This document shows, piece by piece, positions 48,812 to 63,369 of a stretch of DNA of 64,000 nt. This DNA comes from Myxococcales bacterium. Lineage in GTDB: Bacteria > Myxococcota > Myxococcia > Myxococcales > Anaeromyxobacteraceae. Both the position numbers and the translations under genes were made by a program. Within the stretch, counting starts at the first letter, position 1. Every line of letters starts with the position of its first letter. The stretch covers positions 11,610 to 75,609 of the forward strand of contig JBBQEB010000003.1 in assembly GCA_038320275.1 (NCBI GenBank). The letters are read 5' to 3'. The notes beneath the pieces are model-generated. The model saw only the letters and a list, made by a program, of their open reading frames with translations. It ran no database searches and was not told the origin of the DNA.

Positions 48812-49615
48812 TCAGCTCACGCTCTCCGCGCTGTAGCGCGCCAGGAGCCCCGACCGCACCGCGCCGCGGTGGATTCGGACGAAGAAGAGGCAGGCGAGCG
48901 CGATGTACCCAGCGGCGAGGGCCGCTCCGGCCCCGAGCGCGGCAAAGGAGATGGGCTGGCCCGCCACCGCTGCGCGCAGCCCCTCGAAGACGTACGAGGG
49001 CGGCAGCGCCCGACCGACGAGCTGCATCCAGCGCGGCAGCGTGGCGAGCGGGTAGAACACCCCGGCGAAGGGGGAGAGCAGTGCGGGGATGGGCCAGACC
49101 AGCCACTCCGAGGCCGGCCCGAGCCGCAGCACGAGCGCGCTCGCGAAGACGCCGAGCGCGATGCCGAAGAGGAAGAGCACGGCGAGGAAGGGCGCGAGCC
49201 CGAAGCCAACGGTCGAGTAGGAGAGCCCGAAGACCCCCGCCGCGAGCGCGAGCATGACCCCGAGGCCGACCAGGCTCGTCACCACGCTGGAGGCGACCAG
49301 GCCGGCCAGGTATTCACCGATGGTGATCGGGCTCGCGAAGAGGTTGAACAGGTTCCGCGACCAGACGTCCTCGAAGAAAGCCATGGTCACGCCCTGCATG
49401 ACCCGGCCAAAGAAATCCCACAGCAGGATGGCGCCCAGGAGCGTGGGGACGAAGCGGACGGTGGACGAGGCGATCGCGTCCAGGTAGCGGGTGATGAAGC
49501 CCCACAGGACGACGTCGATGGCGACCCAGGCGAAGAGCGGCACCAGCCGCGCAGGGCTGCTGCGGAGCAGATAGGCCTGCCGCAGCAGGATGGCGCCGGT
49601 GCGTTTCAGTCGCAT
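48812..49615 (-). CDS. ABC-2 type permease with no adjacent ATPase
   Basis: FFEDVWSRNL.NLFASP, GVFYPLATLP.W, LPPSYVFEG; about six TM segments. Confidence 0.85.
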   Translation of the reverse strand: MRLKRTGAILLRQAYLLRSSPARLVPLFAWVAIDVVLWGFITRYLDAIASSTVRFVPTLLGAILLWDFFGRVMQGVTMAFFEDVWSRNLFNLFASPITIGEYLAGLVASSVVTSLVGLGVMLALAAGVFGLSYSTVGFGLAPFLAVLFLFGIALGVFASALVLRLGPASEWLVWPIPALLSPFAGVFYPLATLPRWMQLVGRALPPSYVFEGLRAAVAGQPISFAALGAGAALAAGYIALACLFFVRIHRGAVRSGLLARYSAESVS

Positions 49616-51270
49616 GTGCGGGCCGACCTCTCGCCCGACGGCGCCGGGCTCGGGTCGCGCTCGCTCACGCCGTACTTCCGCAGCTTCCCCTGAAGCGTGG
49701 TGGGCTTGAGGCCGAGGAGCGCGGCCGCGCCCTGCGGGCCGTACACTCTGCCGCCGCTCGCGGTCAGCGCGTGGCCGAGGAGCTGCCGCACCTGCTCGTC
49801 GAAGCGCCCCGGGGCGCCCTCCGCGCTCCGCTCCGCGCCGGGACCTCCGCCACCTCCAGCGCGGCCGCCACCCAGAGCTTCGCCGGGTTCGGCCCGCCCG
49901 CGGCCCGGGGAGGGGAGCACGAGCTCGTCTCCCGGCGAGAGGATGAGCGCTCTCTGCAGGTAGTTCTCCAGCTCGCGCACGTTCCCGGGCCATTCGAGCG
50001 CCTCCAGCAACGGCCATGCGTCCTCGGAGACCCGGGGCGGCCGCCGGTGCATGAGCGCAGCGTGCCGGGCGAGGAAGTAGGACGCGAGCGGCCGGATCTC
50101 CGCCCGCCGGGCCCGGAGGGGGGGAAGTTCCAGCGGAAAGACCGCCAGGCGATAGTACAGGTCCGAGCGAAACGTGCCCGCCGCGACCATCGCCTCGAGG
50201 TCGCGGTTCGTCGCCGCGACCACGCGAACGTCCACCTGGACGGAGCCCCCGCCGCCCACGCGCTGGATCTCGCGCTCCTGCAGGACGCGCAGGAGCCGCA
50301 CCTGCACCGATGGGGGTGCATCGCCCACCTCGTCGAGGAAGAGGGTCCCTCCCTCGGCCTGCTCGAAGCGCCCTGAGCGCCTCCGCACCGCTCCGGTGAA
50401 TGCGCCCTTCTCGTGCCCGAAGAGCTCGCTCTCGATGAGGCTGTCCGGCACCGCGCCCAGGTTCACCACCACGAAAGGCGCGCCGAACCGTGGAGACAGG
50501 TCGTGCACCATCCGTGCGAGCCCCTCCTTCCCGGTCCCCGTCTCGCCGCGGATGAGCACGGTCGTCATCGACGGCGCCACCAGCCGCACCCGCTCGAGGA
50601 CCCCCTTCATGCTCGGGCCCTCCGCGACGTAGCGCGCGTCGCGCTTCATCTGCCGGAGCTCCTCCTTGAGGAGCGTGTTCTCGCGGTCGAGGAGGCGGTT
50701 CAGGCGATGCACCTCCTCCACCATCAAGCTGTTGTGGAGGGCGATCGCGACGAGGTGCGCCACCTGCCGCGCCACCTGGAAGCAGCACTCGAGGAGCCCT
50801 TGCCGTGGGGGATGCGCAATGTCGAGCGCGCCCAGCGCCTCGCCCTCGAAGATCAGCGGAAAGGAGACGAGCGAGCCGTAGCCCAGCTCCGCCAGCCGGG
50901 GCTCCTCGCGAAAGCGCGGCCGATCCGCCAGGATCGGGTCCACGATGGTCGGCCGCCGCTCGGCGAGGGCGAGGCCTGCCGCCGAGCCAGCCAGCTCGAA
51001 GGTCCTGCCCACCTCGGTGGCCGGGTGGCGGGGATCGGAGACGAGCGCCACTCTCGCGGTGCCGGGCTCCCCCTCGACGAGGCGGTGGATCGCGACGCGG
51101 GTCGTCCCGAACCGCCGGTTGAGAAGGCGGCCGGTGCGCTCGAGCACTGCCTGCAGGTCGACCGTGGAGAGGACGGCCTCGATGGCCTCCTCGACGATGC
51201 GCTGGTGCGGATCGTGGGCGGGATGAAGGACGGGGACATCACTGGGGAGAATGGGCAGGGGGAGGGGCAT
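49606..51270 (-). CDS. GAF-domain sigma54-dependent transcriptional activator (FhlA/NorR architecture)
   Basis: GAF domain, GETGTGKE, ESELFGHEKGAFTGA, LFLDEVG, WPGNVREL, Fis-type HTH AAALLGLKPTTL. Confidence 0.92.
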   Translation of the reverse strand: MPLPLPILPSDVPVLHPAHDPHQRIVEEAIEAVLSTVDLQAVLERTGRLLNRRFGTTRVAIHRLVEGEPGTARVALVSDPRHPATEVGRTFELAGSAAGLALAERRPTIVDPILADRPRFREEPRLAELGYGSLVSFPLIFEGEALGALDIAHPPRQGLLECCFQVARQVAHLVAIALHNSLMVEEVHRLNRLLDRENTLLKEELRQMKRDARYVAEGPSMKGVLERVRLVAPSMTTVLIRGETGTGKEGLARMVHDLSPRFGAPFVVVNLGAVPDSLIESELFGHEKGAFTGAVRRRSGRFEQAEGGTLFLDEVGDAPPSVQVRLLRVLQEREIQRVGGGGSVQVDVRVVAATNRDLEAMVAAGTFRSDLYYRLAVFPLELPPLRARRAEIRPLASYFLARHAALMHRRPPRVSEDAWPLLEALEWPGNVRELENYLQRALILSPGDELVLPSPGRGRAEPGEALGGGRAGGGGGPGAERSAEGAPGRFDEQVRQLLGHALTASGGRVYGPQGAAALLGLKPTTLQGKLRKYGVSERDPSPAPSGERSARTCD

Positions 51271-51298
51271 GGTCGGTTCCTCGGTCCCGGCAAGGCGG

Positions 51299-51354
51299 CA
51301 CCCAAATGCCGTTGTCACCCAAATACGGTTGCCAGCGCCACCGGAATATGGGTG
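51299..51354. promoter_or_regulatory. Three imperfect palindromes CACCC-N6-GGGTG, putative activator binding sites
   Basis: CACCCaaatgcCGTTG (51299), CACCCaaatacGGTTG (51316), CACCGgaatatGGGTG (51339). Confidence 0.6.
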
Positions 51355-51403
51355 CAAGCGCGGAGGATGGCTTCAAGCGCTTGGAATCTCGACCGTCGGG
51401 GTA

Positions 51404-51419
51404 TGGCACGACCCTCGCT
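51404..51419 (+). promoter_or_regulatory. sigma54 (-24/-12) promoter of the hemerythrin/nos transcription unit
   Basis: TGGCACG-ACCC-TCGCT; one mismatch to TGGCACG-N4-TTGC; adjacent to a sigma54 activator gene. Confidence 0.78.
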
Positions 51420-51484: not shown

Positions 51485-52081
51485 ATGGATGCCATCGAGA
51501 CGTTGATGAACGAGCACCGCCTCATCGAGTCGGCATGCGGCGCGCTCACGGCCTTCGCTGACGAGGCCCGCCGCGCGAGCGCCGACGACAAGGCCGAGCT
51601 CGCGCGCTTCGTGACCTTCATCCGCGAATTCGCCGACGGACACCATCACGGGAAGGAGGAGGACATCCTCTTCGCAGCCATGATCGATGCGGGCTTCTCT
51701 CGCCAGGCCGGCCCGGTCGCCGTGATGCTCATGGAGCACGACCAAGGCCGCGCCTACATCCGCGCGCTCGGCGAGCTCGCAGTGAAGCAGGAGCCCTGGA
51801 GCTCGGAGGACCGCCAGCAGCTCGCCGGGGCGGCGCGCGGCTACGAGCAACTCCTTCGCGCCCACATCCACAAGGAAGACGTGATCCTCTATCCGATGGC
51901 CTGTCAGCGGCTCCCGCCCGAAGCGCTGGCCCGGGTCGATGCGGCTTGCGCCGCCTACGATGCGAAGCACGCCGCGAGCGACGGCGACCGGCTCGAGAAC
52001 CTCGCTGGCGAGCTCCTCGGGCGACACTCCAGTCCTGGCCGCGACGGGCCGGCTGCTCATCGCGTCGGGGGCTGCTGCTGA
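51485..52081 (+). CDS. Hemerythrin/HHE-domain protein
   Basis: NEHRLI, HHGKEEDILF, MEHDQGR, HIHKEDVILYP; GGAG RBS. Confidence 0.9.
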   Translation: MDAIETLMNEHRLIESACGALTAFADEARRASADDKAELARFVTFIREFADGHHHGKEEDILFAAMIDAGFSRQAGPVAVMLMEHDQGRAYIRALGELAVKQEPWSSEDRQQLAGAARGYEQLLRAHIHKEDVILYPMACQRLPPEALARVDAACAAYDAKHAASDGDRLENLAGELLGRHSSPGRDGPAAHRVGGCC

Positions 52082-52174: not shown

Positions 52175-54136
52175 ATGTCCGTCCGCACTCGGCTCCCATC
52201 GCTGGAGGACTGGAAGCGACAGGTGAAATGCCAGGTCGGCTGCCCGGTCGAGACGGACGCCGGTCGATACGTGCAGCTCATCGCCGAAGGGCGCGACGAG
52301 GAGGCCTACCTCGTCGCCCGCGCGCCGAACCCTCTCGCCTCCGTGTGCGGTCGCGTCTGCGCCGCGCCGTGTGAGGACGCCTGCCGGCGGGGCAGCGTGG
52401 ACGCTCCCATCACCATTCGCGCCCTGAAGCGCACCGTCACCGAGAAGTTCGGCGTCGAGTCGATGCGGCCCGACACGCAGGACTCCCTGCTTCACGCGCT
52501 GGTGCGGGAGGGGAATCGCTACGCGGGTCACCTGCCGGTCCATCCGATCGATCCCGCCGCGGCGCCCAACCCGGCGCGTCGAAAGGTGGCGGTGGTGGGC
52601 TCCGGCCCGGCCGGCCTGGCCGCCGCTCACGACTTGGCCCTCCTCGGGTACGCCGTGACGTTGTTCGAGGGCTCGGACGAGCCCGGCGGCATGCTGCGCC
52701 ACGGCATCCCCGAGTACCGCCTGCCGCGCAGTCTGCTCCGGGCCGAGATCGACAAGATCCTCGCCCTGGGCGTCACCCTCGAGACGAAGCGTCCGCTCTT
52801 GCCCGGCTTCGGGCTGGCCGAGCTCCGCCTCGCCGGCTTCGAGGCGTTTTTCCTCTCCGTGGGCGTGCAGCAGGGGCGCGATCTGCAGGCGCCGGGGGTC
52901 GAGCTCGACGGCGTGGTGAAGGCTGTCGATTACCTGCTCAACGCGAACCGCGGCTTCCGCATGGACCTCGGGCGCCGGGTGGTCGTCATCGGCGGGGGCT
53001 TCGTCGCCTTCGACGCGGCCCGGACTGCCATCCGCGCCGCGCGCGACGACACCCCCTCAGCCCCGCCGGAGCTTCAAGGGGAATCCGATGCGCGCATGAA
53101 GGAAGCGATGGACTCGGCGCGCGAGGCGCTCCGCGGCGGGGCGAGTGAAGTCACCATCGTCTCCCTGGAATCCTTCGCCGAGATGCCCGTGCTCCGCACC
53201 GCGCAGGGGCACGAGGAGCTGGAGCAGGCGCAGCTCGAGGGCGTCTCGTTCAAGCCGCGGCGCGGGCCGAGGCGCTTTCTGGGCGAGGGGCACCTCCGCG
53301 CGGTGGAGCTGCGGCGGGTCACCTCGGTCTTCGACGCGAACGGCCGCTTCGCCCCACAGTACGACGACGCGGACGTGGAGACGCTCGAGGCGGATGCCTG
53401 CATCCTCGCCATCGGCCAGAAGCCGGATCTCGCCTTCCTGACGCCGGAGGATGGCGTCGCGCTCACTCCAGGAGGGACGATCCGGGTCGATCCGGAGACG
53501 CTCGCCACGAGCGCGGCCGGCGTGTTCGCGGGCGGGGACGTCGCCTTCGGGCCGCGCAACCTCATCGAGGCCGTCGCGAACGGGAAGAGGGCGGCGCGGT
53601 CCATCCACCGCCACCTGACGCCCGACCGGGCTCGCCTCGAGTCGGTGATCGACGTCGAGAAGCTCCCTACCCGCACCTATCGCATGATCGCCGGGTTCGA
53701 GCTGCTCGACCGGGAGAGCCCGCCCACGCTCCCGCTCGATCGCCGCACCGGCATCGCCGAGGTGGAGAGCGGCTTCTCGGACCTGGAGGCGAGGCAGCAG
53801 GCGGCGCGCTGCCTCGTCTGCCACGTGCAGACGATCTACGACCCGGAGAAGTGCGTCCTCTGCAACCGCTGCGTGGACGTCTGCCCCGAGTACTGCCTGG
53901 CGCTGGTGCCGCTCGAGGAGCTCGAGCTGCCGGAGGAGGAGCGCGCCGCCCTCGTCGCTGCCGCCGAGGCCGGCGGCTTCCCACTCTCCGCCATGATCAA
54001 GGACGACACGGCCTGCATCCGCTGTGGCCTGTGCGCGATCCGCTGCCCGACCGACGCCATGACCATGGAGCGCTTCACCATCACCGAGCGCTGGGCCCCC
54101 GCAGGCGGGGAGCCCGGCCGGAGGGATTCCGCATGA
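52175..54136 (+). CDS. GltD/Nfn large-subunit-like FAD/NAD(P)H oxidoreductase with N- and C-terminal 4Fe-4S domains
   Basis: CQVGCP, CGRVCAAPCEDAC, GSGPAG, GIPEYRLP, GGGFVAFD, FAGGD, CVLCNRCVDVCP, CIRCGLCAIRCP. Confidence 0.9.
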   Translation: MSVRTRLPSLEDWKRQVKCQVGCPVETDAGRYVQLIAEGRDEEAYLVARAPNPLASVCGRVCAAPCEDACRRGSVDAPITIRALKRTVTEKFGVESMRPDTQDSLLHALVREGNRYAGHLPVHPIDPAAAPNPARRKVAVVGSGPAGLAAAHDLALLGYAVTLFEGSDEPGGMLRHGIPEYRLPRSLLRAEIDKILALGVTLETKRPLLPGFGLAELRLAGFEAFFLSVGVQQGRDLQAPGVELDGVVKAVDYLLNANRGFRMDLGRRVVVIGGGFVAFDAARTAIRAARDDTPSAPPELQGESDARMKEAMDSAREALRGGASEVTIVSLESFAEMPVLRTAQGHEELEQAQLEGVSFKPRRGPRRFLGEGHLRAVELRRVTSVFDANGRFAPQYDDADVETLEADACILAIGQKPDLAFLTPEDGVALTPGGTIRVDPETLATSAAGVFAGGDVAFGPRNLIEAVANGKRAARSIHRHLTPDRARLESVIDVEKLPTRTYRMIAGFELLDRESPPTLPLDRRTGIAEVESGFSDLEARQQAARCLVCHVQTIYDPEKCVLCNRCVDVCPEYCLALVPLEELELPEEERAALVAAAEAGGFPLSAMIKDDTACIRCGLCAIRCPTDAMTMERFTITERWAPAGGEPGRRDSA

Positions 54137-54639
54137 GCGTTCGCCCCGACCGGCGCGAGTTCCTGAAGCGGGTAGGGATCGGCGTGGGAGTGGCCGCGAT
54201 GTGCGGGCAAGGCGCTGCGGCGCTGCGCTCCCTCGTGCCCAACGTCTCCTACGACGCCCCCACCACGGTCAAGATCGGCCCTCCGGCGGAGTACCCGGAG
54301 GGCATGAAATTCCTTCCCGAGCAGCGCCTCTTCGTCTTCCGACAGGGTCCGGTGTTCCACGCCATCTCCGCGGTCTGTACGCACCTCGGGTGCACCGTGC
54401 GAGCCGAGGCGCTGTCCAACGTGGAGACGCGCCAGGTGGGCGGCTCCCCGGTGAAGCTCACCCACCGCTTCCTCTGCCCCTGTCACGGGTCGCGCTACGA
54501 GGGCGACGGCGAGAACGTGGCCGGCCCCGCGCCGCGCCCGCTCGCCTGGTACGAGCTCTCCATCGCGACCGACGACGGCCAGCTCGTCGTCGATCTCGCG
54601 AAACCGGTGGAGCGCAGCTTTCGCCTCACCGTCGCCTGA
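54133..54639 (+). CDS. Rieske 2Fe-2S protein
   Basis: Tat motif DRREFLK; CTHLGC and CPCHGS. Confidence 0.93.
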   Translation: MSVRPDRREFLKRVGIGVGVAAMCGQGAAALRSLVPNVSYDAPTTVKIGPPAEYPEGMKFLPEQRLFVFRQGPVFHAISAVCTHLGCTVRAEALSNVETRQVGGSPVKLTHRFLCPCHGSRYEGDGENVAGPAPRPLAWYELSIATDDGQLVVDLAKPVERSFRLTVA

Positions 54640-54648
54640 GGAGCCGCC

Positions 54649-56004
54649 ATGGCCATCTCTCCCGAGGGTCCGGAGGTGCAGCCCAAGAGCGCTCCCGGAG
54701 TGCATCCGAGGCCGCTGTGGAGCCTCCGGCCCGCGTCCGACCGCGAGGCAGGCGACGCGGTGGTGGCGAACTTCCTCCTCCACTGGTTCCCTGTACGCGC
54801 CCTCGCGGACTCGCTCCGCTGGCGCTACTCGCTCTGGCTCGGGACGATCTCCGCGGCGCTCCTGGCGCTGCTCGTCCTCTCGGGCCTGCCGCTCCTTTTC
54901 CTGCACGTGCCCTCCGTCGAGCGCGCCTACGGCTCGGTGAAGGACATCGAGAACGTCGTCACCTTCGGGTCCTGGATCCGCTCCGTTCACCGCCTCTCCG
55001 CTCATTTCATGGTGGCGGTGGTCTTCCTGCACCTGGCGCGCGTCTTCCTCACCGGCGCGTACAAGAATGGGGTGGGGCGGGGGCAGCGCCGGGAGTGGAA
55101 CTGGGTCCTGGGCGTCCTCATGTTCCTGGTGACGCTCTTTCTCAGCTTCACCGGTTACCTCCTGCCCTGGGATCAGCTCGCGTACTGGGCGGTGACGGTG
55201 GGCACCAACATCGCCTCGGCGGTGCCGCTCGTCGGCGAGACCGTGCGCGAGCTCATGCTGGGCGGCCGCACCATCGACCAGCCCACCCTGACGCGCTTCG
55301 AGATGTTGCACGTCATCGTGCTCCCGGGCTTGCTGGCGGTGCTGTTCGCCTACCACATGTGGCGCATCCGAAAGGACGGCGGGCTCGCCAGCGCCGATGG
55401 CGCCGCCCTGCTGCCCGCGGCCGCGCCCGTCTCCGCCGCCGAGCGGGCCACGAAGACGTACACGCTGCTCGGTGTGGCGCGCGGCCAAGGGCCCCGCATC
55501 CGCGCCACCTCGCTCGAGCGCCCGGACGTCTCCGTGAGCTCGGTGCCCGACCTCACCCGGCGCATCGCCATCGTGATGCTGGGCACGTTCGCGGTGCTCT
55601 CCATCCTGGCGGTGTTCATCCACTCTCCGCTCGAGGAGCCGGCCAACGCCCTCGTCACGCCCAACCCCGCCAAGGCACCCTGGTACTTCCTCTGGCTGCA
55701 GGAGATCGTCACCGACACGACCATCCATCTCGGCTCCTTCACCATCAACGGCGCCTTCGTGGGCGGGGTCGTCCTTCCCGGGCTCCTCGTCGGGCTGATG
55801 CTGGTCTGGCCCTGGCTCGACCGGAGCCCGGCCGCGGCCGCCGGGCGCTGGTTCCCCCGCAGCCGGCGCACCCAGAACGTCGTGTTTCTCGCTCTCGTCG
55901 CGGTGGTCATCGTCCTCACCCTCATCGGCACGTTCGCGCGCGGCCCCTACTGGCGGCTCTACTGGCCCTGGCAGAGCTGGCCCGACATGCCGACCCGGTT
56001 CTGA
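54649..56004 (+). CDS. Cytochrome b of a Rieske/cytb complex (b and subunit IV fused)
   Basis: RSVHR..AH....FLHLARVF, FTGYLLPWDQLAYWA, LH....YH, KAPWYFL (PEWY equivalent). Confidence 0.92.
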   Translation: MAISPEGPEVQPKSAPGVHPRPLWSLRPASDREAGDAVVANFLLHWFPVRALADSLRWRYSLWLGTISAALLALLVLSGLPLLFLHVPSVERAYGSVKDIENVVTFGSWIRSVHRLSAHFMVAVVFLHLARVFLTGAYKNGVGRGQRREWNWVLGVLMFLVTLFLSFTGYLLPWDQLAYWAVTVGTNIASAVPLVGETVRELMLGGRTIDQPTLTRFEMLHVIVLPGLLAVLFAYHMWRIRKDGGLASADGAALLPAAAPVSAAERATKTYTLLGVARGQGPRIRATSLERPDVSVSSVPDLTRRIAIVMLGTFAVLSILAVFIHSPLEEPANALVTPNPAKAPWYFLWLQEIVTDTTIHLGSFTINGAFVGGVVLPGLLVGLMLVWPWLDRSPAAAAGRWFPRSRRTQNVVFLALVAVVIVLTLIGTFARGPYWRLYWPWQSWPDMPTRF

Positions 56005-56005
56005 C

Positions 56006-57271
56006 ATGGAACGGCGCACGATCTTTCCCGAAGCTCCCCGCGACCGGCTGCTGCTCGCCATGGTCGGACTCGTCCTCGTCGTCTCCACGGCGCTCTTCGT
56101 CTGGAGCGACCACGCCAAGGACTGGCGCTGGTACCAGGCGGAGTTCCGCAAGCGCGTGGCGGAGAAATTCGGCCAGGAGAAGGCCTCCACCGTCCCGGCG
56201 GGCATGAAGCAGCTCTGGGCGGCTGACCTGCGCCGGGCCGATCGCTGCGTCACCTGTCATCAGGCCACCGCCTGGAAGGGCTTCGAGGCGGCCGAGGAGC
56301 CCTTCCGCACGCACCCGCAGGAGGTGCTGCGGACGCACCCGGTCGAGCGGTTCGGCTGCACCGCCTGCCACGGGGGGGAAGGCTTCGCGGTCACCTCGGA
56401 GGACGCGCACGGCCCCACCCCGCACTGGGAGGAGCCGGTGCTCGGCACGACGCTCGGCGAGGCCTACTCCCTCGTGGGCGACAAGGGCGCCCTGCTGCAG
56501 ATGAACTGCAATATCTGCCACCGCTATGACCGCGAGACGAAGGGGGCCGCGGCCATCAACCTCGCGAAGAGGCTGGTGCGGGAGAAGGGCTGCCGCGCCT
56601 GCCACGTGGTGAACGGGCGTGGCGGCTCCATCGGGCCTGACCTCACCGAGGTGGGAGACAAGGCGCCCGAGCAGTACGACTACTCCCGCCTGCTCGGGCA
56701 GAAGACCTCGTACGCCTGGCACGTCGCCCACATCAAGGAGCCGAAGGCCGTCGTCCCCGACACGGTGATGCCGACCTTCGGCTTCTCCACCGCCGAGGCG
56801 CAGGCGCTCGCCATGCTCGTCATGTCCTGGCGGCGCGAGGCGCTCCCCGCCGCGTACCTGGCGGGCGCGCCCCGTGGGGAGCCGCAGACGGCGCGTGAGG
56901 TCGAGGAGGAGGCCATGATGAAGACAGGGCCGGGCGCCTGGTTCGTGAAGACGGGCTGCTACATCTGCCACAACGTCTCCTCGCTCGGAGTGAAGAGCCC
57001 GGCACAGATCGGCCCCGATCTCTCGCTGGCGGTGGAGGACGTGCAAGCGCGCTTTGGGCGCACCCTCGACGACTTCCTCGACACGCCCACCGGAACCATG
57101 TCCGTGGTGCTGTCGAGACAGATCATTCTCAGCAAGGACGAGAAGAAGGTCGCGGTGGGGAAGATCCGCGAGGCGTACGCCGAGTACCAGAAGCAGAAGG
57201 GCAAGGCCGCCGGTTCTGGGGCCACGAAGCGACCGGGCGACGAGCCCGCCCACGAGAGGAAGACCCCATGA
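56006..57271 (+). CDS. Membrane-anchored pentahaem cytochrome c
   Basis: N-terminal TM; five CxxCH motifs (CVTCH, CTACH, CNICH, CRACH, CYICH). Confidence 0.9.
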   Translation: MERRTIFPEAPRDRLLLAMVGLVLVVSTALFVWSDHAKDWRWYQAEFRKRVAEKFGQEKASTVPAGMKQLWAADLRRADRCVTCHQATAWKGFEAAEEPFRTHPQEVLRTHPVERFGCTACHGGEGFAVTSEDAHGPTPHWEEPVLGTTLGEAYSLVGDKGALLQMNCNICHRYDRETKGAAAINLAKRLVREKGCRACHVVNGRGGSIGPDLTEVGDKAPEQYDYSRLLGQKTSYAWHVAHIKEPKAVVPDTVMPTFGFSTAEAQALAMLVMSWRREALPAAYLAGAPRGEPQTAREVEEEAMMKTGPGAWFVKTGCYICHNVSSLGVKSPAQIGPDLSLAVEDVQARFGRTLDDFLDTPTGTMSVVLSRQIILSKDEKKVAVGKIREAYAEYQKQKGKAAGSGATKRPGDEPAHERKTP

Positions 57272-59130
57272 CCCAGAAGAGCACGCTCACCTGGACGGCG
57301 CTGGCGGCAGCGGGGATCCTGGCCGCGGGCTGCGCACCCTCAAAGCCGAAGAACACGCAGCAGGCCCGCGCCGGCGCGTCGGACATCAGCGTCGCGGCGG
57401 AGAAGACCTACGTCCCGCCGGGCGATCTCGACGAGTACTACATGTTCTCGTCAGGCGGGCACTCCGGGCAGATCTTCGTCTTCGGCCTGCCGTCCATGCG
57501 CCACCTCACCACCATCCCGGTGTTCACGCCCTATCCCGGCGTCGGCTACGGCTTCGACGACGACTCGAAGAAGATGCTGGGAGAGTACACCTGGGGCGAC
57601 GCCCACCATCCCGCGCTCTCGGAGACGAACGGCGACTACGACGGCCGCTGGCTCTTCATCAACGAGATGAACGGCCGGGTGGCGCGCATCGACCTGCGCG
57701 ACTTCAAGACGAAGCAGATCCTGGGCCCGGTGCCGAACATCTCCGGCAACCACGGCTCGGCCTTCGTCACGCCCAACACCGAGTACGCGATGATGTCCTC
57801 GCGCTTCTCGGTCCCCATCCCGCTCGGCACCTATGCGTCGATGGACAAGTACGCGAGCGAGTTCAAGGGCATCATCGCCGGCGTGAAGATCGACCCCAAG
57901 AGCGGGGAGATGTCGCTCGGCTGGGAGATCGTGACGCCGCCCTTCGACTGGGACCTGGGCGACGCCGGCAAGGGACCGTCCGACGGCTGGATGTTCTTCA
58001 CCTGCTACAACTCCGAGCGCGCGATCGGGAAGCTGGAGGTGACCGCCTCGCAGCGGGACCGCGACTACATCGCGGCGGTGAACTGGCGGGTGGCCGAGAA
58101 GGCGATCCAGGAGGGGAAGGGCAAGGACATCGGCGGCGCCAAGGTGCTGAACCCGCGCGACGTGCCGGGGCTCATGTACCTCATGCCGTGCGGCAAGTCC
58201 CCGCACGGCGTGGACGTGACGCCGGACGGCAAGTGGATCATCGGGTCGGGCAAGCTGCAGGGGGTCACCACCGCCTTCAACTTCGAGAAGGTCCAGACCG
58301 CCATCAAGAACAAGGACTTCACCGGCGACGAAGACGGGATCCCGGTGCTCAAGTACGAGTCCATCAAGGACGCCGAGGTCCCGGTGGGGCTGGGGCCGCT
58401 CCACACCCAGTTCGGCGGCGACGGCTACGCCTATACCTCCCTCTTCGTGGACAGCGCGGTGGCGAAGTGGAAGCTCGGCACCTGGGAGGTGGTGGACAGG
58501 ATCCCGGTCTCGTACTCGATCGGCCACCTCGCCGCCGCCGAGGGCGACAGCGCGCACCCGAAGGGCAAGTACCTCGTCGCGCTCAACAAGCTCTCGCACG
58601 GCCGGCACCTGTCGGTGGGTCCCTCGCAGCCGGAGAGCTCGCAGCTCATCGACATCACCGGCGAGAAGATGAAGCTCCTCTACGACGCCTTCACCGAGCC
58701 CGAACCGCACTACGCGCAGATCATCAAGGCCGACAAGCTCCACCCGATCGAGGTCTATCCCAAGGAGGAGAATCACCACCCGCTCGCGGTCTGGGACGTG
58801 AAGGACGCCGGCACGAAGCGCGACGGCACCAAGGTGGTGGTGAAGGTGGTGTTGGTGCGCTCCAGCATCACCCCGGCGGCAGTGGAGGTGAACCAGGGCG
58901 ATACCGTCACGTTCGCCATCACCAACATCGAGCAGACCACCGACGAGCTGCACGGCTTCGGCTTGCTCGGCTACAACAAGAACCTGGTCATCGACCCGGG
59001 CGAGACGAAGACCCTCACCATCGTGGCGGACAAGGCGGGAGTCTATCCGTACTACTGCACCAACTTCTGCTCCGCGCTCCACCAGGAGATGCAGGGTTAT
59101 CTCGTCGTGAAGCCCAAGGCGAAGAGGTGA
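57268..59130 (+). CDS. nosZ: Nitrous-oxide reductase, clade II (Sec/lipoprotein signal)
   Basis: SGGHSGQ, WGDAHHP, GNHG, SPHG, LGPLH, IGH, EPHY (CuZ); CTNFCSALHQEM (CuA); no Tat RR motif. Confidence 0.97.
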   Translation: MTQKSTLTWTALAAAGILAAGCAPSKPKNTQQARAGASDISVAAEKTYVPPGDLDEYYMFSSGGHSGQIFVFGLPSMRHLTTIPVFTPYPGVGYGFDDDSKKMLGEYTWGDAHHPALSETNGDYDGRWLFINEMNGRVARIDLRDFKTKQILGPVPNISGNHGSAFVTPNTEYAMMSSRFSVPIPLGTYASMDKYASEFKGIIAGVKIDPKSGEMSLGWEIVTPPFDWDLGDAGKGPSDGWMFFTCYNSERAIGKLEVTASQRDRDYIAAVNWRVAEKAIQEGKGKDIGGAKVLNPRDVPGLMYLMPCGKSPHGVDVTPDGKWIIGSGKLQGVTTAFNFEKVQTAIKNKDFTGDEDGIPVLKYESIKDAEVPVGLGPLHTQFGGDGYAYTSLFVDSAVAKWKLGTWEVVDRIPVSYSIGHLAAAEGDSAHPKGKYLVALNKLSHGRHLSVGPSQPESSQLIDITGEKMKLLYDAFTEPEPHYAQIIKADKLHPIEVYPKEENHHPLAVWDVKDAGTKRDGTKVVVKVVLVRSSITPAAVEVNQGDTVTFAITNIEQTTDELHGFGLLGYNKNLVIDPGETKTLTIVADKAGVYPYYCTNFCSALHQEMQGYLVVKPKAKR

Positions 59131-59149: not shown

Positions 59150-59797
59150 GTGACGGGGGAGATCTGGGAGCGGGAGAACCGGTTGCTCCAGGCGCCGGTG
59201 GGCGCCGCGCCGCGCGGGGCGCTCGTCGTCGCGGCCTTGCTCCTGGTTGCAAGCCTGGCGACGCCACTCTGGAACATGACCATGTTCGCGCCTCAATACC
59301 AGGACGGCCTGCGGCTCGAGATCCGCAGTTCCGGGCTGGTCGGGGGCAACCGCGGCCAGGACCTGAAGGAGATCAATCTCCTCAATCACTACATTGGGAT
59401 GCACGAGCTGGCGCAGGAAAACTTCACCGAGTTCCTGTGGATGCCCTTCATCATGGGCGTGCTCGCGCTGCTCATGCTGCGGGCCGCGGCCTTCGGTACG
59501 GTCGGGCACATCGTCGATGCGACGGTGCTGTTCGTGTACTTCGGCCTCTTCGCGCTCTGGTCCTTCGGGCACAAGATGTGGGCGTACGGGCACGAGCTCG
59601 ACCCGACCGCTCCGGTGAAGGTCCCCGGCTTCATGCCTCCGATGTTCGGCCGCTCCCAGCTCGCCAACTTCGAGGTGTACTCGTACCCCGGCCCCGGCAG
59701 CTACGCCTTCCTCGGCGTCGGCCTGGCGCTCCTCGTGGCTCTCGCGCTGGGCTGGCGCGCGGCGCGGGCCACGACGTCCAGGGCGCCGGCGAGGTAG
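59150..59797 (+). CDS. nosB: NosB-like membrane protein of clade II nos clusters
   Basis: APQYQDGL, INLLNHYIGM, YGHELDPTAP, PPMFG..QLANF; four TM segments; directly after nosZ. Confidence 0.8.
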   Translation: MTGEIWERENRLLQAPVGAAPRGALVVAALLLVASLATPLWNMTMFAPQYQDGLRLEIRSSGLVGGNRGQDLKEINLLNHYIGMHELAQENFTEFLWMPFIMGVLALLMLRAAAFGTVGHIVDATVLFVYFGLFALWSFGHKMWAYGHELDPTAPVKVPGFMPPMFGRSQLANFEVYSYPGPGSYAFLGVGLALLVALALGWRAARATTSRAPAR

Positions 59798-59799
59798 CG

Positions 59800-61179
59800 G
59801 TGGCGCTCGCACCGGCGCTGCTCGCGCTGGCCGCCGCGGCGGCGGCGGGCGACATGGCTACCGAAGCGCCGGGCGCACTGGAGGCGAGGTCCCCGCCCGC
59901 GGAGACGTCGCCGCTGCAGGCGCTCATCGACCGCGCCCCGGCGGGCTCGACTGTGACCGTGGAACCGGGCACCTACGCGGGGGCGCTCGTCATCGACCGG
60001 CCCCTGCGCCTCGTCGGACGAGGCCGCCCGCGGCTGCTCGGCGCGGGGCAGGGAAGCGTGGTGCGCATCCGCGCTCCCGACGTGACGGTGGAGGGCTTCG
60101 ACGTCGATGGCCTCGGGCTCGGCGATCTCGGGCGCGACTCCTCCGGCGTGCACGTGGCCGCGCTGCGCGCGATCGTGCGTGACGTCCGCATCGAGCGGAC
60201 GCTCTACGGCGTTTACCTGCGCCAGGCGCACGGCGCGCGCGTCGAGCGCTGCGTCATCCGGGGGATGCGGGAGAAGGAGGCGGGCGAGAAGGGCTCCGGG
60301 ATCCACGTCTGGAACACGGAAGGGTTCACGCTCGACGGGAACCAGATCTCGGACGTTCGCGACGGCTTCTACATTCAGTCGTCGAACCACGGCATCATCC
60401 GGCGCAACGTGGCCCGCGACCTCCGCTACGGCATCCACTACATGTACGCCGACGACAACGCGTTCGAGGACAATCTGTTCGAGCGCAGCGACGCGGGGGG
60501 CGTGCTCATGCACTCGCGGCGCATCGCCTTCCGGCGCAACCAGTTTCTCCACAATCGCGGGCCCTCCTCGGTGGGGCTCCTGTTCAAGTCGTGCGACGAC
60601 TCGGTGGCCGAGGACAACCTCCTCGCCGACAACGCGCGCGGCATCTTCATCGAGGGCTCCTACCGCGACATCTTCCGGCGGAACGTGATCGCCGAGTCGG
60701 ACATCGCCATCGTCCTCTTCGACTCCTGTGGCGGGGTGACGTTCGAGGGAAACGCTTTCCTCGCCAACCTGACCCCGCTCACGCTCGTCGGCCGGCGCAC
60801 CGACACGATCTTCGACGGGAACTACTGGTCGTCCAACGACGCGCCCGACCTCGACGGCGACGGCATCTCCGACCAGCCCTACGTCCTGGGGAGCCTCTTC
60901 GATCACCTGCGTGGCAACCTCACCGCGGCCGACCTCCTCGCCCAGAGCCCCGCCGCCCTGGCCCTGGTCGCCGCGGAGCGCGCCTTCCCCGTGCTGCACC
61001 CGATCCTCGCCGCCGACCACCGCCCGCTGGCGCGGCCTCCCTCGCTGCGCGACGTCCCGCGCCCGGCGCGGCGGCCCCGCTCGGCCAGCGTCGCGGGGGG
61101 CCTCCTCTCCGCTGGCCTCCTCCTGGCGGCGGTGGCGGGGTCCATCCTCGCCCGCAAGGCGCGGCGGAGGGGGGCGTGA
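59800..61179 (+). CDS. nosD: Nitrous oxide reductase maturation protein
   Basis: beta-helix repeats, GIHVWN, RYGIHYMY, GNYWS....DLDGDGISDQPY. Confidence 0.92.
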   Translation: MALAPALLALAAAAAAGDMATEAPGALEARSPPAETSPLQALIDRAPAGSTVTVEPGTYAGALVIDRPLRLVGRGRPRLLGAGQGSVVRIRAPDVTVEGFDVDGLGLGDLGRDSSGVHVAALRAIVRDVRIERTLYGVYLRQAHGARVERCVIRGMREKEAGEKGSGIHVWNTEGFTLDGNQISDVRDGFYIQSSNHGIIRRNVARDLRYGIHYMYADDNAFEDNLFERSDAGGVLMHSRRIAFRRNQFLHNRGPSSVGLLFKSCDDSVAEDNLLADNARGIFIEGSYRDIFRRNVIAESDIAIVLFDSCGGVTFEGNAFLANLTPLTLVGRRTDTIFDGNYWSSNDAPDLDGDGISDQPYVLGSLFDHLRGNLTAADLLAQSPAALALVAAERAFPVLHPILAADHRPLARPPSLRDVPRPARRPRSASVAGGLLSAGLLLAAVAGSILARKARRRGA

Positions 61180-62075
61180 TCCGCTTCGAGGTTTTCTCGA
61201 AGCGGTATGGCGCTCACCTCGCCGTGGCGGGGCTGACGTTCGCGACGAGAGCGGGCGAGATCGTTGCCCTCCTCGGCCCCAATGGCTCGGGGAAGACGAC
61301 CTCCCTCAAGGCGGCTGCGGGGCTCGTGCGGCCGAGCTCCGGTGCGGTGCGCGTCGGGGAGGACGACCTCCCGGCGAGCGACCCCGCGGCCCGGCGCGCG
61401 CTCTCCTTCCTGCCGCAGAAAGTCTCCTTCCCGGAGGCGCTCACCGGACGCGAGGTGGTCGAGTTCTACCGGCGGCTCCGCGGCGTGGGCGCGGAGAGCG
61501 CCGAGGCGGTGCTGCGCGTCGCGGCGCTCGACGGGGCCGCCCGCCGTGCGGTGGGGACGTACTCCGGCGGCATGGTGCAGCGGCTCGGGCTGGCGGTGGC
61601 TGCATTGCCCGACGCGCCGCTCCTCCTGCTGGACGAGCCGACCTCGTCGCTCGATGCGCAGGGCCTCGCCGCCTTCCACGAGCTCGCCGAGGCGCGGCGG
61701 CGCAGCGGCGGCACGGTGGTCTTCAGCTCCCACCAGCTCTCCGACGTGGAGCGGCTCGCCGATCGGGTCGCCATCCTCGTCGCGGGCCGGCTGGTGGCGG
61801 TGCTCTCCCGCGCCGAGCTGTCCGACCGGCTGGCCGAGCGCGGCGTGCTGCGGGCGCGACTCGAGTCGAGCCCCGCAGGGCTCCTCGAGCGCGTGAGGGC
61901 TGCCGCGCCGGGGTCATCGCTGCGGGGGGACGAGCTCACGGTGCCGGGGCCGCCACGCGCCCGGGCGGAGGCGCTCGAGGCCGTGCAGGCTTCCGGCGCC
62001 CGCATCCGAGGGCTCACCGCCGAGGAAGGCAGGCTCGACCTGCTCTACGGCGACCTCGCCGGGAAGGTCGCGTGA
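61176..62075 (+). CDS. nosF: ABC ATPase
   Basis: GPNGSGKT, YSGGMVQR, LLLDEPT; nos context. Confidence 0.88.
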   Translation: MIRFEVFSKRYGAHLAVAGLTFATRAGEIVALLGPNGSGKTTSLKAAAGLVRPSSGAVRVGEDDLPASDPAARRALSFLPQKVSFPEALTGREVVEFYRRLRGVGAESAEAVLRVAALDGAARRAVGTYSGGMVQRLGLAVAALPDAPLLLLDEPTSSLDAQGLAAFHELAEARRRSGGTVVFSSHQLSDVERLADRVAILVAGRLVAVLSRAELSDRLAERGVLRARLESSPAGLLERVRAAAPGSSLRGDELTVPGPPRARAEALEAVQASGARIRGLTAEEGRLDLLYGDLAGKVA

Positions 62076-62533
62076 GGGCGGCAGGGGCGGTCGGCGCCGC
62101 GCTGGGCGCAGTCGTGATCCTCGCCTGCTCGCGCGGGACCCCCGGACCCGCGCCGCTCGACACGCGCGTCGAGGCTTGCGCCCGCTGCCGCATGGCCGTC
62201 TCCGACGCGCGCTTCGCGGCGCAGCTCGTGGCGCCCTCCGAGGAGCCCCGGTTCTTCGACGACGTGGGCTGCTTGCGCGATTTCCTGCGCGACGCACGGA
62301 ACCCTCCCCGCGGAGCGACCGCCTTCGTGGCCGACCACCGCACCCGCGCCTGGGTCCCCGCGGCGGTCGCCGTCTACACGCTAGCGCCGTCGATCGACAC
62401 TCCCATGGCCTCCCACCTCCTCGCCCACGCCGATGACGCCTCGCGCGACGCCGATCCGGCCGCGCGCGCCGGCAGGCGGCTCACCGCGGGCGAGGTCTTC
62501 GGGCCGTCCGCCCTGCCCCCGGCGCGCCCATGA
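62072..62533 (+). CDS. nosL: Copper chaperone lipoprotein
   Basis: Lipobox ILAC; CARCRM, FDDVGC, TPMAS. Confidence 0.88.
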   Translation: MRAAGAVGAALGAVVILACSRGTPGPAPLDTRVEACARCRMAVSDARFAAQLVAPSEEPRFFDDVGCLRDFLRDARNPPRGATAFVADHRTRAWVPAAVAVYTLAPSIDTPMASHLLAHADDASRDADPAARAGRRLTAGEVFGPSALPPARP

Positions 62534-63369
62534 GTCGCCCGGGCGTCCTCCTCCTGGTGGCTCGGCAGGAGCTCCTGCTCGCGGTGCGCTCGCGCTGGAC
62601 GCAGATCTTCGCCGCCGTGTTCGCGGTGCTGGCGGTGGGTGTGGCCGGGTCCGGGTACGTTCTCTCCGGAGGGAGCGGCTTCCAGGACTTCGCCCGCACC
62701 AGCGCTTCGCTGATTCAGCTCGTGGTGCTGGTCGTCCCGCTCGCCGCCCTGCTCATGGGCGTGCTCGCCCTCGCGCCGGAGCGCGGCGCGGCCGAGATCC
62801 TCTTCGCGCAGCCGGTGTCGCGCGGAGCCATCCTGGTCGGGCGACTGCTGGGCCTGTTCGCCGCGCTGGGACTGGCCGAGCTGGCTGGCTTCGGGCTCGC
62901 CGGGGTGCTGGTCTTCGCCGGGGCGGGCGACGAGGGGGCAGGAGGATACGCGCTCATCGTCCTGGGCGCTGTGCTGCTCACCGCGGCCTCGCTGTCGATC
63001 GCGGCTCTCCTGGCGGCGGCGGCGGTGGGCCGGAAGCGGCAGCGCGCGCTCGCGGCGGCGGTGGTGGTCTGGCTCTCCGCGTCGGTGCTCGTCGATCTGG
63101 CGGCGCTTGGGGCCGCCTCCCTCCTTCCGTCCGCCATCGCGTCGCGGGTGCTGGTCCTCTCCGTCATCGTGAACCCCGCCTCGGCGGTCCGGACGGGAGC
63201 GCTGCTGGCGGTGGAGGGCACCGCCGCCTTTGGCGCGTCCTCCCTCGCCCTGCTGCGGTTCACGGGTGGCGAGGCGGGCGCCGCGCTCTGGCTGGGGGGC
63301 TCCTTGCTGGGCTGGATCGTCTTGCCCGCGCTGGCCGCCTCGCGGCGCCTGGCGAGGGTGGATCTGTGA
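62530..63369 (+). CDS. nosY: ABC permease
   Basis: ERGAAEILFAQPVSR, NP...R motif; about six TM segments; nos context. Confidence 0.85.
   Translation: MSRPGVLLLVARQELLLAVRSRWTQIFAAVFAVLAVGVAGSGYVLSGGSGFQDFARTSASLIQLVVLVVPLAALLMGVLALAPERGAAEILFAQPVSRGAILVGRLLGLFAALGLAELAGFGLAGVLVFAGAGDEGAGGYALIVLGAVLLTAASLSIAALLAAAAVGRKRQRALAAAVVVWLSASVLVDLAALGAASLLPSAIASRVLVLSVIVNPASAVRTGALLAVEGTAAFGASSLALLRFTGGEAGAALWLGGSLLGWIVLPALAASRRLARVDL

Follow-up and report, generated by a model that had tools for sequence, protein, structure and literature searches.

In anaerobic ammonium-oxidizing (anammox) bacteria, Rieske/cytochrome b complexes carry nicotinamide adenine dinucleotide (phosphate) [NAD(P)] oxidoreductase subunits for which electron bifurcation has been proposed (Hauser et al. 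2025, available sections of PMC12954380, citing Kartal et al. 2013). In the accessible part of the work by Dibrova et al. (2013, 2017; PMC5600118), cytochromes b of 'subfamily G' were likewise reported to co-occur with NAD(P)-binding Fe-S oxidoreductases. Clade II nos clusters, in turn, have been drawn with the gene order 'Fe-S, Rieske (S/Rs), cy-b, cy-c, nosZ, nosB...' (excerpts of PMC11096178, PMC11237620 and PMC13122619). Here, we analyzed a stretch of 64,000 nucleotides (nt), referred to as the window, from a soil Myxococcales bacterium of the Anaeromyxobacteraceae (GCA_038320275.1, contig JBBQEB010000003.1, positions 11,610-75,609 of the forward strand; G+C content of about 72%), in which a flavoprotein gene and the genes of a Rieske/cytochrome b complex directly precede the gene for the nitrous oxide (N2O) reductase NosZ. 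An earlier reading of the window, made from the sequence alone, had stated that Rieske/cytochrome b genes occur in some clade II nos clusters and that anammox complexes bear NAD(P) oxidoreductase subunits with a proposed bifurcation, and both statements agree with the sources cited above.

Genes were assigned from open reading frames combined with Pfam and NCBIfam scans, and the survey of Pfam families covered the window from 44 to 64 kb. Five genes are found on the plus strand between positions 52175 and 59130:

52175..54136, + strand: GltD/NfnB-type flavoprotein, 653 amino acids, soluble (Pfam Fer4_20 and Pyr_redox_2, C-terminal 2x[4Fe-4S])
54133..54639, + strand: Rieske [2Fe-2S] subunit (Pfam Rieske; the ATG at 54133 gives MSVRPDRREFLK)
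54649..56004, + strand: fused cytochrome b6-like and subunit IV-like (petD-like) protein (Pfam Cytochrome_B and Cytochrom_B_C)
56006..57271, + strand: pentahaem cytochrome c with an N-terminal membrane anchor (five CXXCH motifs; Pfam Cytochrom_C)
57268..59130, + strand: clade II (Sec-dependent) NosZ (TIGR04246)

The spacings between these genes amount to -4, 9, 1 and -4 nt, the values that the sequence-only reading had given for genes that overlap or abut, and the stop codon of the flavoprotein gene overlaps the Rieske start. From the protein sequences, the flavoprotein is predicted to be cytoplasmic and cytochrome b to lie in the membrane; NosZ, the Rieske head and all five c haems would face the periplasm.

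When prokaryotes were scanned with one genome for each species, 170 relatives of the flavoprotein were retrieved, of which the best 80 loci, with identities of 69-79%, were kept. These best 80 belong to Anaeromyxobacter, to Anaeromyxobacteraceae and to Acidobacteriota (Thermoanaerobaculia, Vicinamibacterales and Holophagales), and they include the cultured Anaeromyxobacter soli SG29 and Anaeromyxobacter sp. PSR-1, with flavoprotein orthologues that are 75-77% identical. Wherever enough downstream DNA was available, the flavoprotein gene was followed by the genes for the Rieske protein (74 of 74 loci), cytochrome b (67 of 67), the pentahaem cytochrome c (60 of 60) and NosZ (51 of 51), and because of this invariable order the arrangement is conserved far beyond chance. 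Seven of the 74 Rieske loci had been flagged by a distance filter; in five, the Rieske match overlaps the flavoprotein match, and the remaining two hold a partial flavoprotein match.

The genes with which the flavoprotein co-occurs were further analyzed in a sample of 301 Myxococcota genomes, 61 of which encode NosZ (a tally that includes one unpublished genome, G196). An orthologous flavoprotein with at least 71% identity was found in 15 of these 61 genomes, each time on the nosZ contig at a distance of about 5 kb, with an orthologous cytochrome b gene between the two. Ten of the other 46 nosZ loci were sampled, and no Rieske, cytochrome b or flavoprotein gene was found in the 14-16 kb inspected for each. 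Nine of these flavoprotein-less loci were scanned with Pfam; five hold small mono- or dihaem cytochromes c, and one holds a cytochrome c domain fused to NosZ. Conversely, ten paralogues of the flavoprotein (39-44% identity; five from the flavoprotein search, at 40-44%, and five more among 40 further cytochrome b loci picked across the identity range) are encoded directly beside Rieske and cytochrome b genes, without a nosZ match in the fetched DNA. A cytc5-like multihaem cytochrome c gene is part of eight of these ten paralogous modules, and three of the ten are followed by a molybdopterin oxidoreductase gene (L099:6705-15592, L100:1194-9582 and L101:721-9850). Among 45 fetched cytochrome b loci, 35 lack a same-strand flavoprotein gene within 3.5 kb. 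The flavoprotein is thus an optional addition within this cytochrome b family, and it tracks the Rieske/cytochrome b genes rather than nosZ. Because of this pattern of co-occurrence, we regard the flavoprotein together with Rieske/cytochrome b as the unit and NosZ as one of several terminal enzymes; the modules would then form a family in which the terminal enzyme can be swapped.

The flavoprotein is composed of an N-terminal Fe-S domain, Rossmann folds for flavin adenine dinucleotide (FAD) and NAD(H), and a C-terminal ferredoxin domain of the 2x[4Fe-4S] type in which additional cysteines are conserved, and a hydropathy scan revealed neither a hydrophobic membrane segment nor a signal-like segment. 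Its closest solved relatives are 9bov_A (E value of 2.5e-70), NfnB and GltD, and a Foldseek search with a structure model of the flavoprotein gave NfnABC, StnABC and NfnI-L as top matches, with GltD and DPD among the others. Among 66 orthologues, 17 cysteines are invariant, and the ten paralogues keep 16-17 of them (six N-terminal and 10-11 C-terminal) as well as Glu67. By their number, these cysteines should suffice for about four [4Fe-4S] clusters, as modelled in the anammox subunits. Also invariant are G142, G144 and G147 of the FAD-binding GxGxxG motif and G273-275 of a second, GGG motif.

With regards to the nucleotide, the basic pair of NfnI-L binds the 2'-phosphate of NADPH. The Y-R-R of Pyrococcus furiosus NfnI-L aligns to S-L-E in the flavoprotein of the window, which therefore misses the NADPH-binding arginine pair. 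The surrounding VT[IV]VSLE was found in 71 of the 80 orthologue matches and VSIVSLE in one more, and the glutamate is present in all 11 sequences of an alignment that includes the paralogues. By the usual Rossmann-fold rule, S-L-E in place of Y-R-R favours NAD(H) over NADP(H), and the NAD(P)H of the sequence-only reading can be narrowed down in this direction.

A further stretch of the flavoprotein, CLVCH (residues 546-550, window positions 53810-53825), resembles a CXXCH motif. It is invariant in the nos-linked flavoproteins, and both of its cysteines are present in all paralogues. A haem c site was considered and rejected, with the histidine in only one of 11 sequences once the paralogues are included and with a flavoprotein that has no export signal. 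Together with Cys574, the cysteine pair may bind one more metal ion or Fe-S cluster than a standard two-cluster ferredoxin domain holds.

The Rieske protein starts with a twin-arginine motif (RREFLK), of which RR-x-F was found in 60 of 74 orthologue matches, and its cluster-binding boxes CTHLGC and CPCHGSRY are kept in all 74. Its best solved relatives are 9rk4 (E value of 8.5e-19) and 9rk3 (7.1e-18), and all Rieske proteins of b6f and bc1 complexes rank behind these two. In the available text of PMC12954380, these structures are Kuste4569 and Kustd1480, the Rieske subunits of both Kuenenia complexes that bear an NAD(P) oxidoreductase, with measured potentials of +303 and +335 mV. The protein of the window shares with them the potential-raising Ser/Tyr pair within CPCHGSRY. 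Here, the serine occurs in 74 of 74 orthologues and the tyrosine in 72 of 74. The serine is also present in all ten paralogous flavoprotein-linked modules; of 35 Rieske proteins encoded where no flavoprotein gene is nearby, only 18 have it. This bias of the serine toward flavoprotein-linked Rieske proteins is suggestive only, as the genomes are related.

For cytochrome b, a hydropathy scan predicted seven transmembrane helices in a 4+3 arrangement. The best solved relative is cytochrome b6, and matches to the NCBIfam models ExtP and ExtQ remained under the cut-off. Among 59 sequences, H114, H128, H221 and H236 are invariant, which we take, from homology to b6, to be the ligands of the two b haems on helices B and D. 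The Qo site carries the variant A-P-W-Y of the canonical P-E-W-Y motif, with P344, W345 and Y346 invariant. The pentahaem cytochrome c has a single transmembrane helix (residues 15-33) and CXXCH motifs at residues 81, 118, 168, 196 and 318, and five such motifs are present in 59 of 59 orthologues; the Pfam family Cytochrome_C7 was listed for it without a qualifying stretch. This protein is likely the wire from the Rieske protein to NosZ.

NosZ reached 912 bits with TIGR04246 (cut-off of 625 bits) and 424 bits with TIGR04244, the model of the twin-arginine translocation type, which is under the cut-off of 625 bits, and it is the sole copy in the assembly. The assembly, on which all genome-wide negative results are based, is 90.7% complete and consists of 343 contigs. 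Its only bc-type cytochrome b is the nos-linked one. With one cytochrome b and one NosZ, the Rieske/cytochrome b complex is thus specific to the nos operon, and the general transfer of electrons from quinol to cytochrome c would have to use another system. Futalosine-pathway genes for menaquinone and NuoH of complex I are present, and no UbiG was found over the cut-off in the assembly; the host is a menaquinone-using, probably organotrophic bacterium.

The sequence-only reading had also named nosR, nosX, nosG and nosH as absent, and this was borne out, as were all of its other observations: family scans detected none of them between 44 and 64 kb of the window, ApbE and FMN_bind are missing from the assembly, and neither NapH nor NapG was found in it over the cut-off. 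One unlinked NapH-like Fer4_5 protein is encoded on another contig, between genes for an esterase and an MFS transporter. In five near-complete relatives, Fer4_5 proteins on the same contig are more than 250 kb away from nosZ, and others are located on different contigs.

Compared to the anammox complexes of Kuenenia stuttgartiensis (Kuste4569-4574 and Kustd1480-1485), the locus shows the same set of components in one operon, namely a GltD/NfnB-like FAD/Fe-S protein, a Rieske protein, a b6-like cytochrome b with subunit IV and an anchored multihaem cytochrome c. About four predicted Fe-S sites lead to the FAD in both cases, and in the portions of the sources available, NfnABC (9bov/9bp5) is the nearest solved relative of both the flavoprotein of the window and the anammox reductase. 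However, the terminal enzyme is an HAO-like octahaem protein in anammox bacteria and NosZ in the window, the cytochromes c carry six or eight haems compared to five, and the window belongs to a menaquinone-using, probably organotrophic myxobacterium without an anammoxosome. The nucleotide site, with S-L-E where NfnI-L has Y-R-R, is likewise listed as a difference from the anammox type. This comparison is based on the solved structures and on PMC12954380; the best 120 matches of a protein search were all close orthologues, and an Atlas search gave only generic FAD-oxidoreductase clusters.

The flavoprotein shares with the bifurcating NfnAB, NfnABC and StnABC and with GltD the Fer4_20 domain, the FAD/NAD(P) fold and the invariant Cys/Glu ligands within the N-terminal Fe-S domain. 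It differs in that there is no partner of the NfnA, B or C type and no large subunit of glutamate synthase, in its extra C-terminal ferredoxin domain, in its place within the operon of a membrane-bound Rieske/cytochrome b complex and in the missing NADPH arginine pair. A general co-occurrence of short b6-like cytochromes b with large cytoplasmic NAD(P)/Fe-S proteins, as in the locus, had already been noted by Dibrova et al.; planctomycetes and 'many other cases' are mentioned in the accessible part of PMC5600118, and nos clusters are not. With the Wolinella nos system, as far as the available descriptions go, the locus has in common a clade II NosZ with NosB and an electron supply that depends on Rieske/cytochrome bc, whereas a NosGH menaquinol dehydrogenase module is also reported for Wolinella; here, NosG and NosH were not found, the Rieske/cytochrome b genes are located inside the nos operon, and the flavoprotein is added.

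The cluster is of a type identical to the clade II nos clusters of Anaeromyxobacter and others, and drawings of this kind reportedly appeared in the work of Sanford et al. as early as 2012. However, in the sections available of the papers on Anaeromyxobacter, the first gene is only termed an 'iron-sulfur protein', with neither an NAD(P)H flavoprotein nor anammox complexes under discussion. In a limited collection of full texts, no paper was found in which the nos-linked 'Fe-S' gene is recognized as an Nfn/GltD-type NAD(H) flavoprotein or set against the anammox complexes. The gene order and Rieske/cytochrome b complexes bearing an NAD(P) reductase are thus already known, and the nos-linked version occurs in cultivable bacteria. 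As the accessible literature draws the gene order and labels the flavoprotein only 'Fe-S', the sequence-only reading was fair in calling such a complex little-characterized.

Based on these observations, the flavoprotein is probably a true functional partner of the Rieske/cytochrome b complex dedicated to NosZ. The interpretation of the sequence-only reading is supported in part, and the coupling of the two that it had proposed was strengthened by the co-variation of the flavoprotein with Rieske/cytochrome b, by the likeness of the Rieske protein to its anammox counterparts and by the likeness of the flavoprotein to Nfn and Stn. Beyond this, we infer that the flavoprotein binds cytochrome b, in which direction the electrons flow, that the nucleotide is NAD(H) and that energy is conserved. 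Co-folding of a cytochrome b dimer (residues 35-451, two copies) with residues 490-653 of the flavoprotein gave scores of 0.10 and 0.00 compared to a mark of 0.32, which was counted neither for nor against binding.

For the mechanism, we tentatively favour an anammox-like complex with bifurcation at the Qo site, in which one electron of menaquinol would be delivered to NosZ and the other would be directed towards NAD+, although we rate this at somewhat less than an even chance. It is favoured because of the Rieske protein of the high-potential type, the Nfn-like flavoprotein and the energetic argument that has been given for anammox. A b6f-like core, in which the fused b6/subunit IV protein is joined by a Rieske protein exported through Tat, would oxidize menaquinol at a periplasmic Qo site, and the electron of the Rieske branch would pass through the membrane-anchored pentahaem cytochrome c to NosZ. 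The cytoplasmic flavoprotein, which should hold FAD and about four [4Fe-4S] clusters and have a site for a pyridine nucleotide, would be wired to the b haems. The very favourable, high-potential N2O branch could then let the second electron move from one b haem to the other, along the Fe-S clusters to FAD and finally to NAD+. The resulting NADH would be re-oxidized by complex I, and the number of protons moved per electron would exceed that of an ordinary Q cycle. The most far-reaching version, a bifurcating menaquinol:N2O/NAD+ oxidoreductase that roughly doubles the protons per electron relative to the Q cycle and represents one branch of a wider modular family of flavoprotein-bearing Rieske/cytochrome b units, with other branches attached to molybdoenzymes in Myxococcota and to HAO-like proteins in anammox bacteria, appears doubtful at present.

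Several observations weigh against bifurcation of the anammox type. It is not evident why an organotroph that has complex I should make NADH from quinol, and the anatomy of the complex would allow electrons to enter from NADH just as well. The b6 and subunit IV parts are fused in the window, and subunit IV has three helices compared to five in anammox bacteria. Furthermore, the cytochrome b of the window differs from the anammox type in lacking the cysteine for haem ci/cN. An invariant W63, which precedes L-G, is found instead where, in an alignment by eye, the haem ci/cn cysteine of b6 would presumably be located. His45 and WRIRKDGG had been considered as a marker of the extra haem b, which AlphaFold3 models of the anammox complexes place with an N-terminal cytochrome b histidine at the dimer interface (available part of PMC12954380). 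They appear to match the residues in question in position, and His45 is invariant among the orthologues; however, a histidine is aligned there in 26 of 35 cytochrome b loci without a nearby flavoprotein gene, and both features, being common in such loci, were rejected as a specific marker. Fourteen longer relatives of cytochrome b carry fused Rieske or cytochrome c domains, and a fusion with a flavoprotein domain was not among them, which is weak evidence, and the structure model of the flavoprotein is of moderate confidence only, with a predicted local distance difference test (pLDDT) score of 69. Lastly, in one metagenome-assembled genome of the Holophagales (L021:10954-11484), the flavoprotein gene is followed by 531 nt without Rieske-like sequence up to the end of the contig. 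This sole exception to the synteny may be due to a rearrangement or an assembly error.

The main rival, rather unlikely although it fits the anatomy as well as bifurcation does, is a flow in the reverse direction, which the sequence-only reading had named as well. Here, NAD(P)H would be the donor, and electrons from the flavoprotein would enter either at the haem b of the n-side or at the Qi site and reduce menaquinone, with the quinol being oxidized at Qo, so that the complex would act as an NAD(P)H:cytochrome c/NosZ oxidoreductase bypassing complex I. For a host that is probably an NADH-producing organotroph, and with the sole Rieske/cytochrome b complex of its assembly, such a self-contained line from donor to NosZ would be useful. 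However, the host does encode complex I, which together with a Q cycle would move more protons per electron than this route; the same argument has been made against this direction for anammox in the available text of PMC12954380. Moreover, the potential-raising serine of the Rieske protein is universal in the flavoprotein-linked modules, which would be expected for a low-potential b branch and is unneeded for simple feeding.

The flavoprotein could also be a partner of the complex that serves as a redox valve or sensor rather than for bulk energy coupling, either by drawing electrons off the b haems under over-reduction of the quinone pool or by a low-potential, NosR-like upkeep of catalytically competent NosZ. 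With nosR, nosX, nosG and nosH not found, some replacement would be expected, and the flavoprotein is optional in its cytochrome b family (missing from the 35 of 45 loci mentioned above). However, the same module occurs with molybdoenzymes and without a nosZ match nearby, so that a NosZ-specific role cannot explain the family, and about four clusters plus FAD are typical of a catalytic electron wire; we therefore consider such a role quite improbable. Even less likely is a flavoprotein that stays soluble and apart from the complex and shares no more than its transcript, such as an oxidoreductase with another substrate that depends on ferredoxin or NAD(P)H, next to an ordinary Q cycle feeding NosZ: GltD/NfnB modules do serve many enzymes, but the flavoprotein gene is adjacent to Rieske/cytochrome b in 74 of 74 orthologous and ten of ten paralogous loci from two phyla and with different terminal enzymes, is missing from the ten sampled nos clusters without Rieske/cytochrome b, and overlaps the Rieske start with its stop codon in the window. 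Homologues of the flavoprotein co-migrate with anammox complexes according to the available parts of PMC12954380 and PMC5600118. It is this constancy across phyla and terminal enzymes that makes the last two explanations less likely than an electron exchange between the flavoprotein and the complex.

High growth yields have been reported for some clade II N2O reducers, and bifurcation, if true, could explain them. If the complex exchanges electrons with NAD(H), both the energy yield and the redox control of N2O respiration would differ from the textbook chain of bc1, cytochrome c and NosZ. Bifurcation at the nos-linked complex would also provide a second, independent system for the anammox hypothesis, in cultivable and faster-growing hosts and with a simple terminal reaction, so that it would be directly testable. 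The occurrence of the flavoprotein/Rieske/cytochrome b/multihaem unit with molybdoenzymes as well suggests a general respiratory module. NosZ is described in the literature as the only known biological sink for N2O, and Anaeromyxobacter and Acidobacteriota are common soil N2O reducers (available text of PMC13122619).

Downstream of nosZ, the operon continues with nosB-like, nosD, nosF, nosL and nosY genes, and upstream of the flavoprotein gene a hemerythrin gene and a divergent regulator are located:

49606..51357, - strand: sigma-54-dependent activator with a GAF sensor, NorR/NifA-like (Pfam GAF, Sigma54_activat and AAA_lid_14; start codon uncertain)
51404..51418, + strand: candidate sigma-54 (-24/-12) promoter-like motif TGGCACGACCCTCGC (one mismatch to the consensus)
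51485..52081, + strand: hemerythrin-domain protein, YtfE/RIC/DnrN-like di-iron type (Pfam Hemerythrin, E value of 2.7e-21; weak NCBIfam matches to YtfE, RIC and DnrN)
59150..59797, + strand: NosB-like membrane protein (assigned from its position and its conservation at that position; no family model match)
59794..61179, start approximate, + strand: NosD (Pfam NosD and Beta_helix)
61176..62075, + strand: NosF, ABC ATPase (Pfam ABC_tran; start placed at the GTG overlapping the nosD stop)
62072..62533, start approximate, + strand: NosL (Pfam NosL, E value of 3.3e-4, under the gathering score; position kept in related loci)
62530..63369, + strand: NosY, ABC-2 permease (Pfam ABC2_membrane_2; seven predicted transmembrane helices)

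The NosB-like protein consists of 215 amino acids with four predicted transmembrane helices. Its gene starts 19 nt past nosZ and keeps this position in related loci, and the protein matched neither a Pfam nor an NCBIfam model. The signal peptide of NosZ itself (window positions 57268-57340) ends in L-A-A-G-C, a possible but weak lipobox, and a simple pattern search found a comparable cysteine motif upstream of seven of 57 orthologues; a lipidation of NosZ, if real, would therefore not be general. Tandem NosZ-like genes were observed in four Myxococcota genomes (G032:C5:2689803-2693872, G024:C6:528179-532221, G108:C527:5336-9398 and G068:C44:318770-322830). One copy of each pair is divergent (about 390-430 bits); its partner has a C-terminal cytochrome c domain at L096 (from G032), the sole locus with a Pfam scan.

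The divergent sigma-54-dependent activator is the probable regulator of the nos operon; its NCBIfam matches to NifA, FhlA and NorR all remained under the cut-off. The hemerythrin gene is the first gene on the operon strand. Its mechanical open reading frame starts at 51251, and an in-frame ATG at 51485 directly precedes the domain. The motif TGGCACGACCCTCGC is located 67 nt upstream of this ATG. Across the whole window, 29 sigma-54-like matches with up to two mismatches were found compared to 52 expected, a number not above chance, and a sigma-54 promoter at this site is only a lead. The pair of regulator and hemerythrin gene recurs in the closest relative (L049), and in another locus (L089) a sigma-54 activator gene and a hemerythrin gene flank another type of nosZ.

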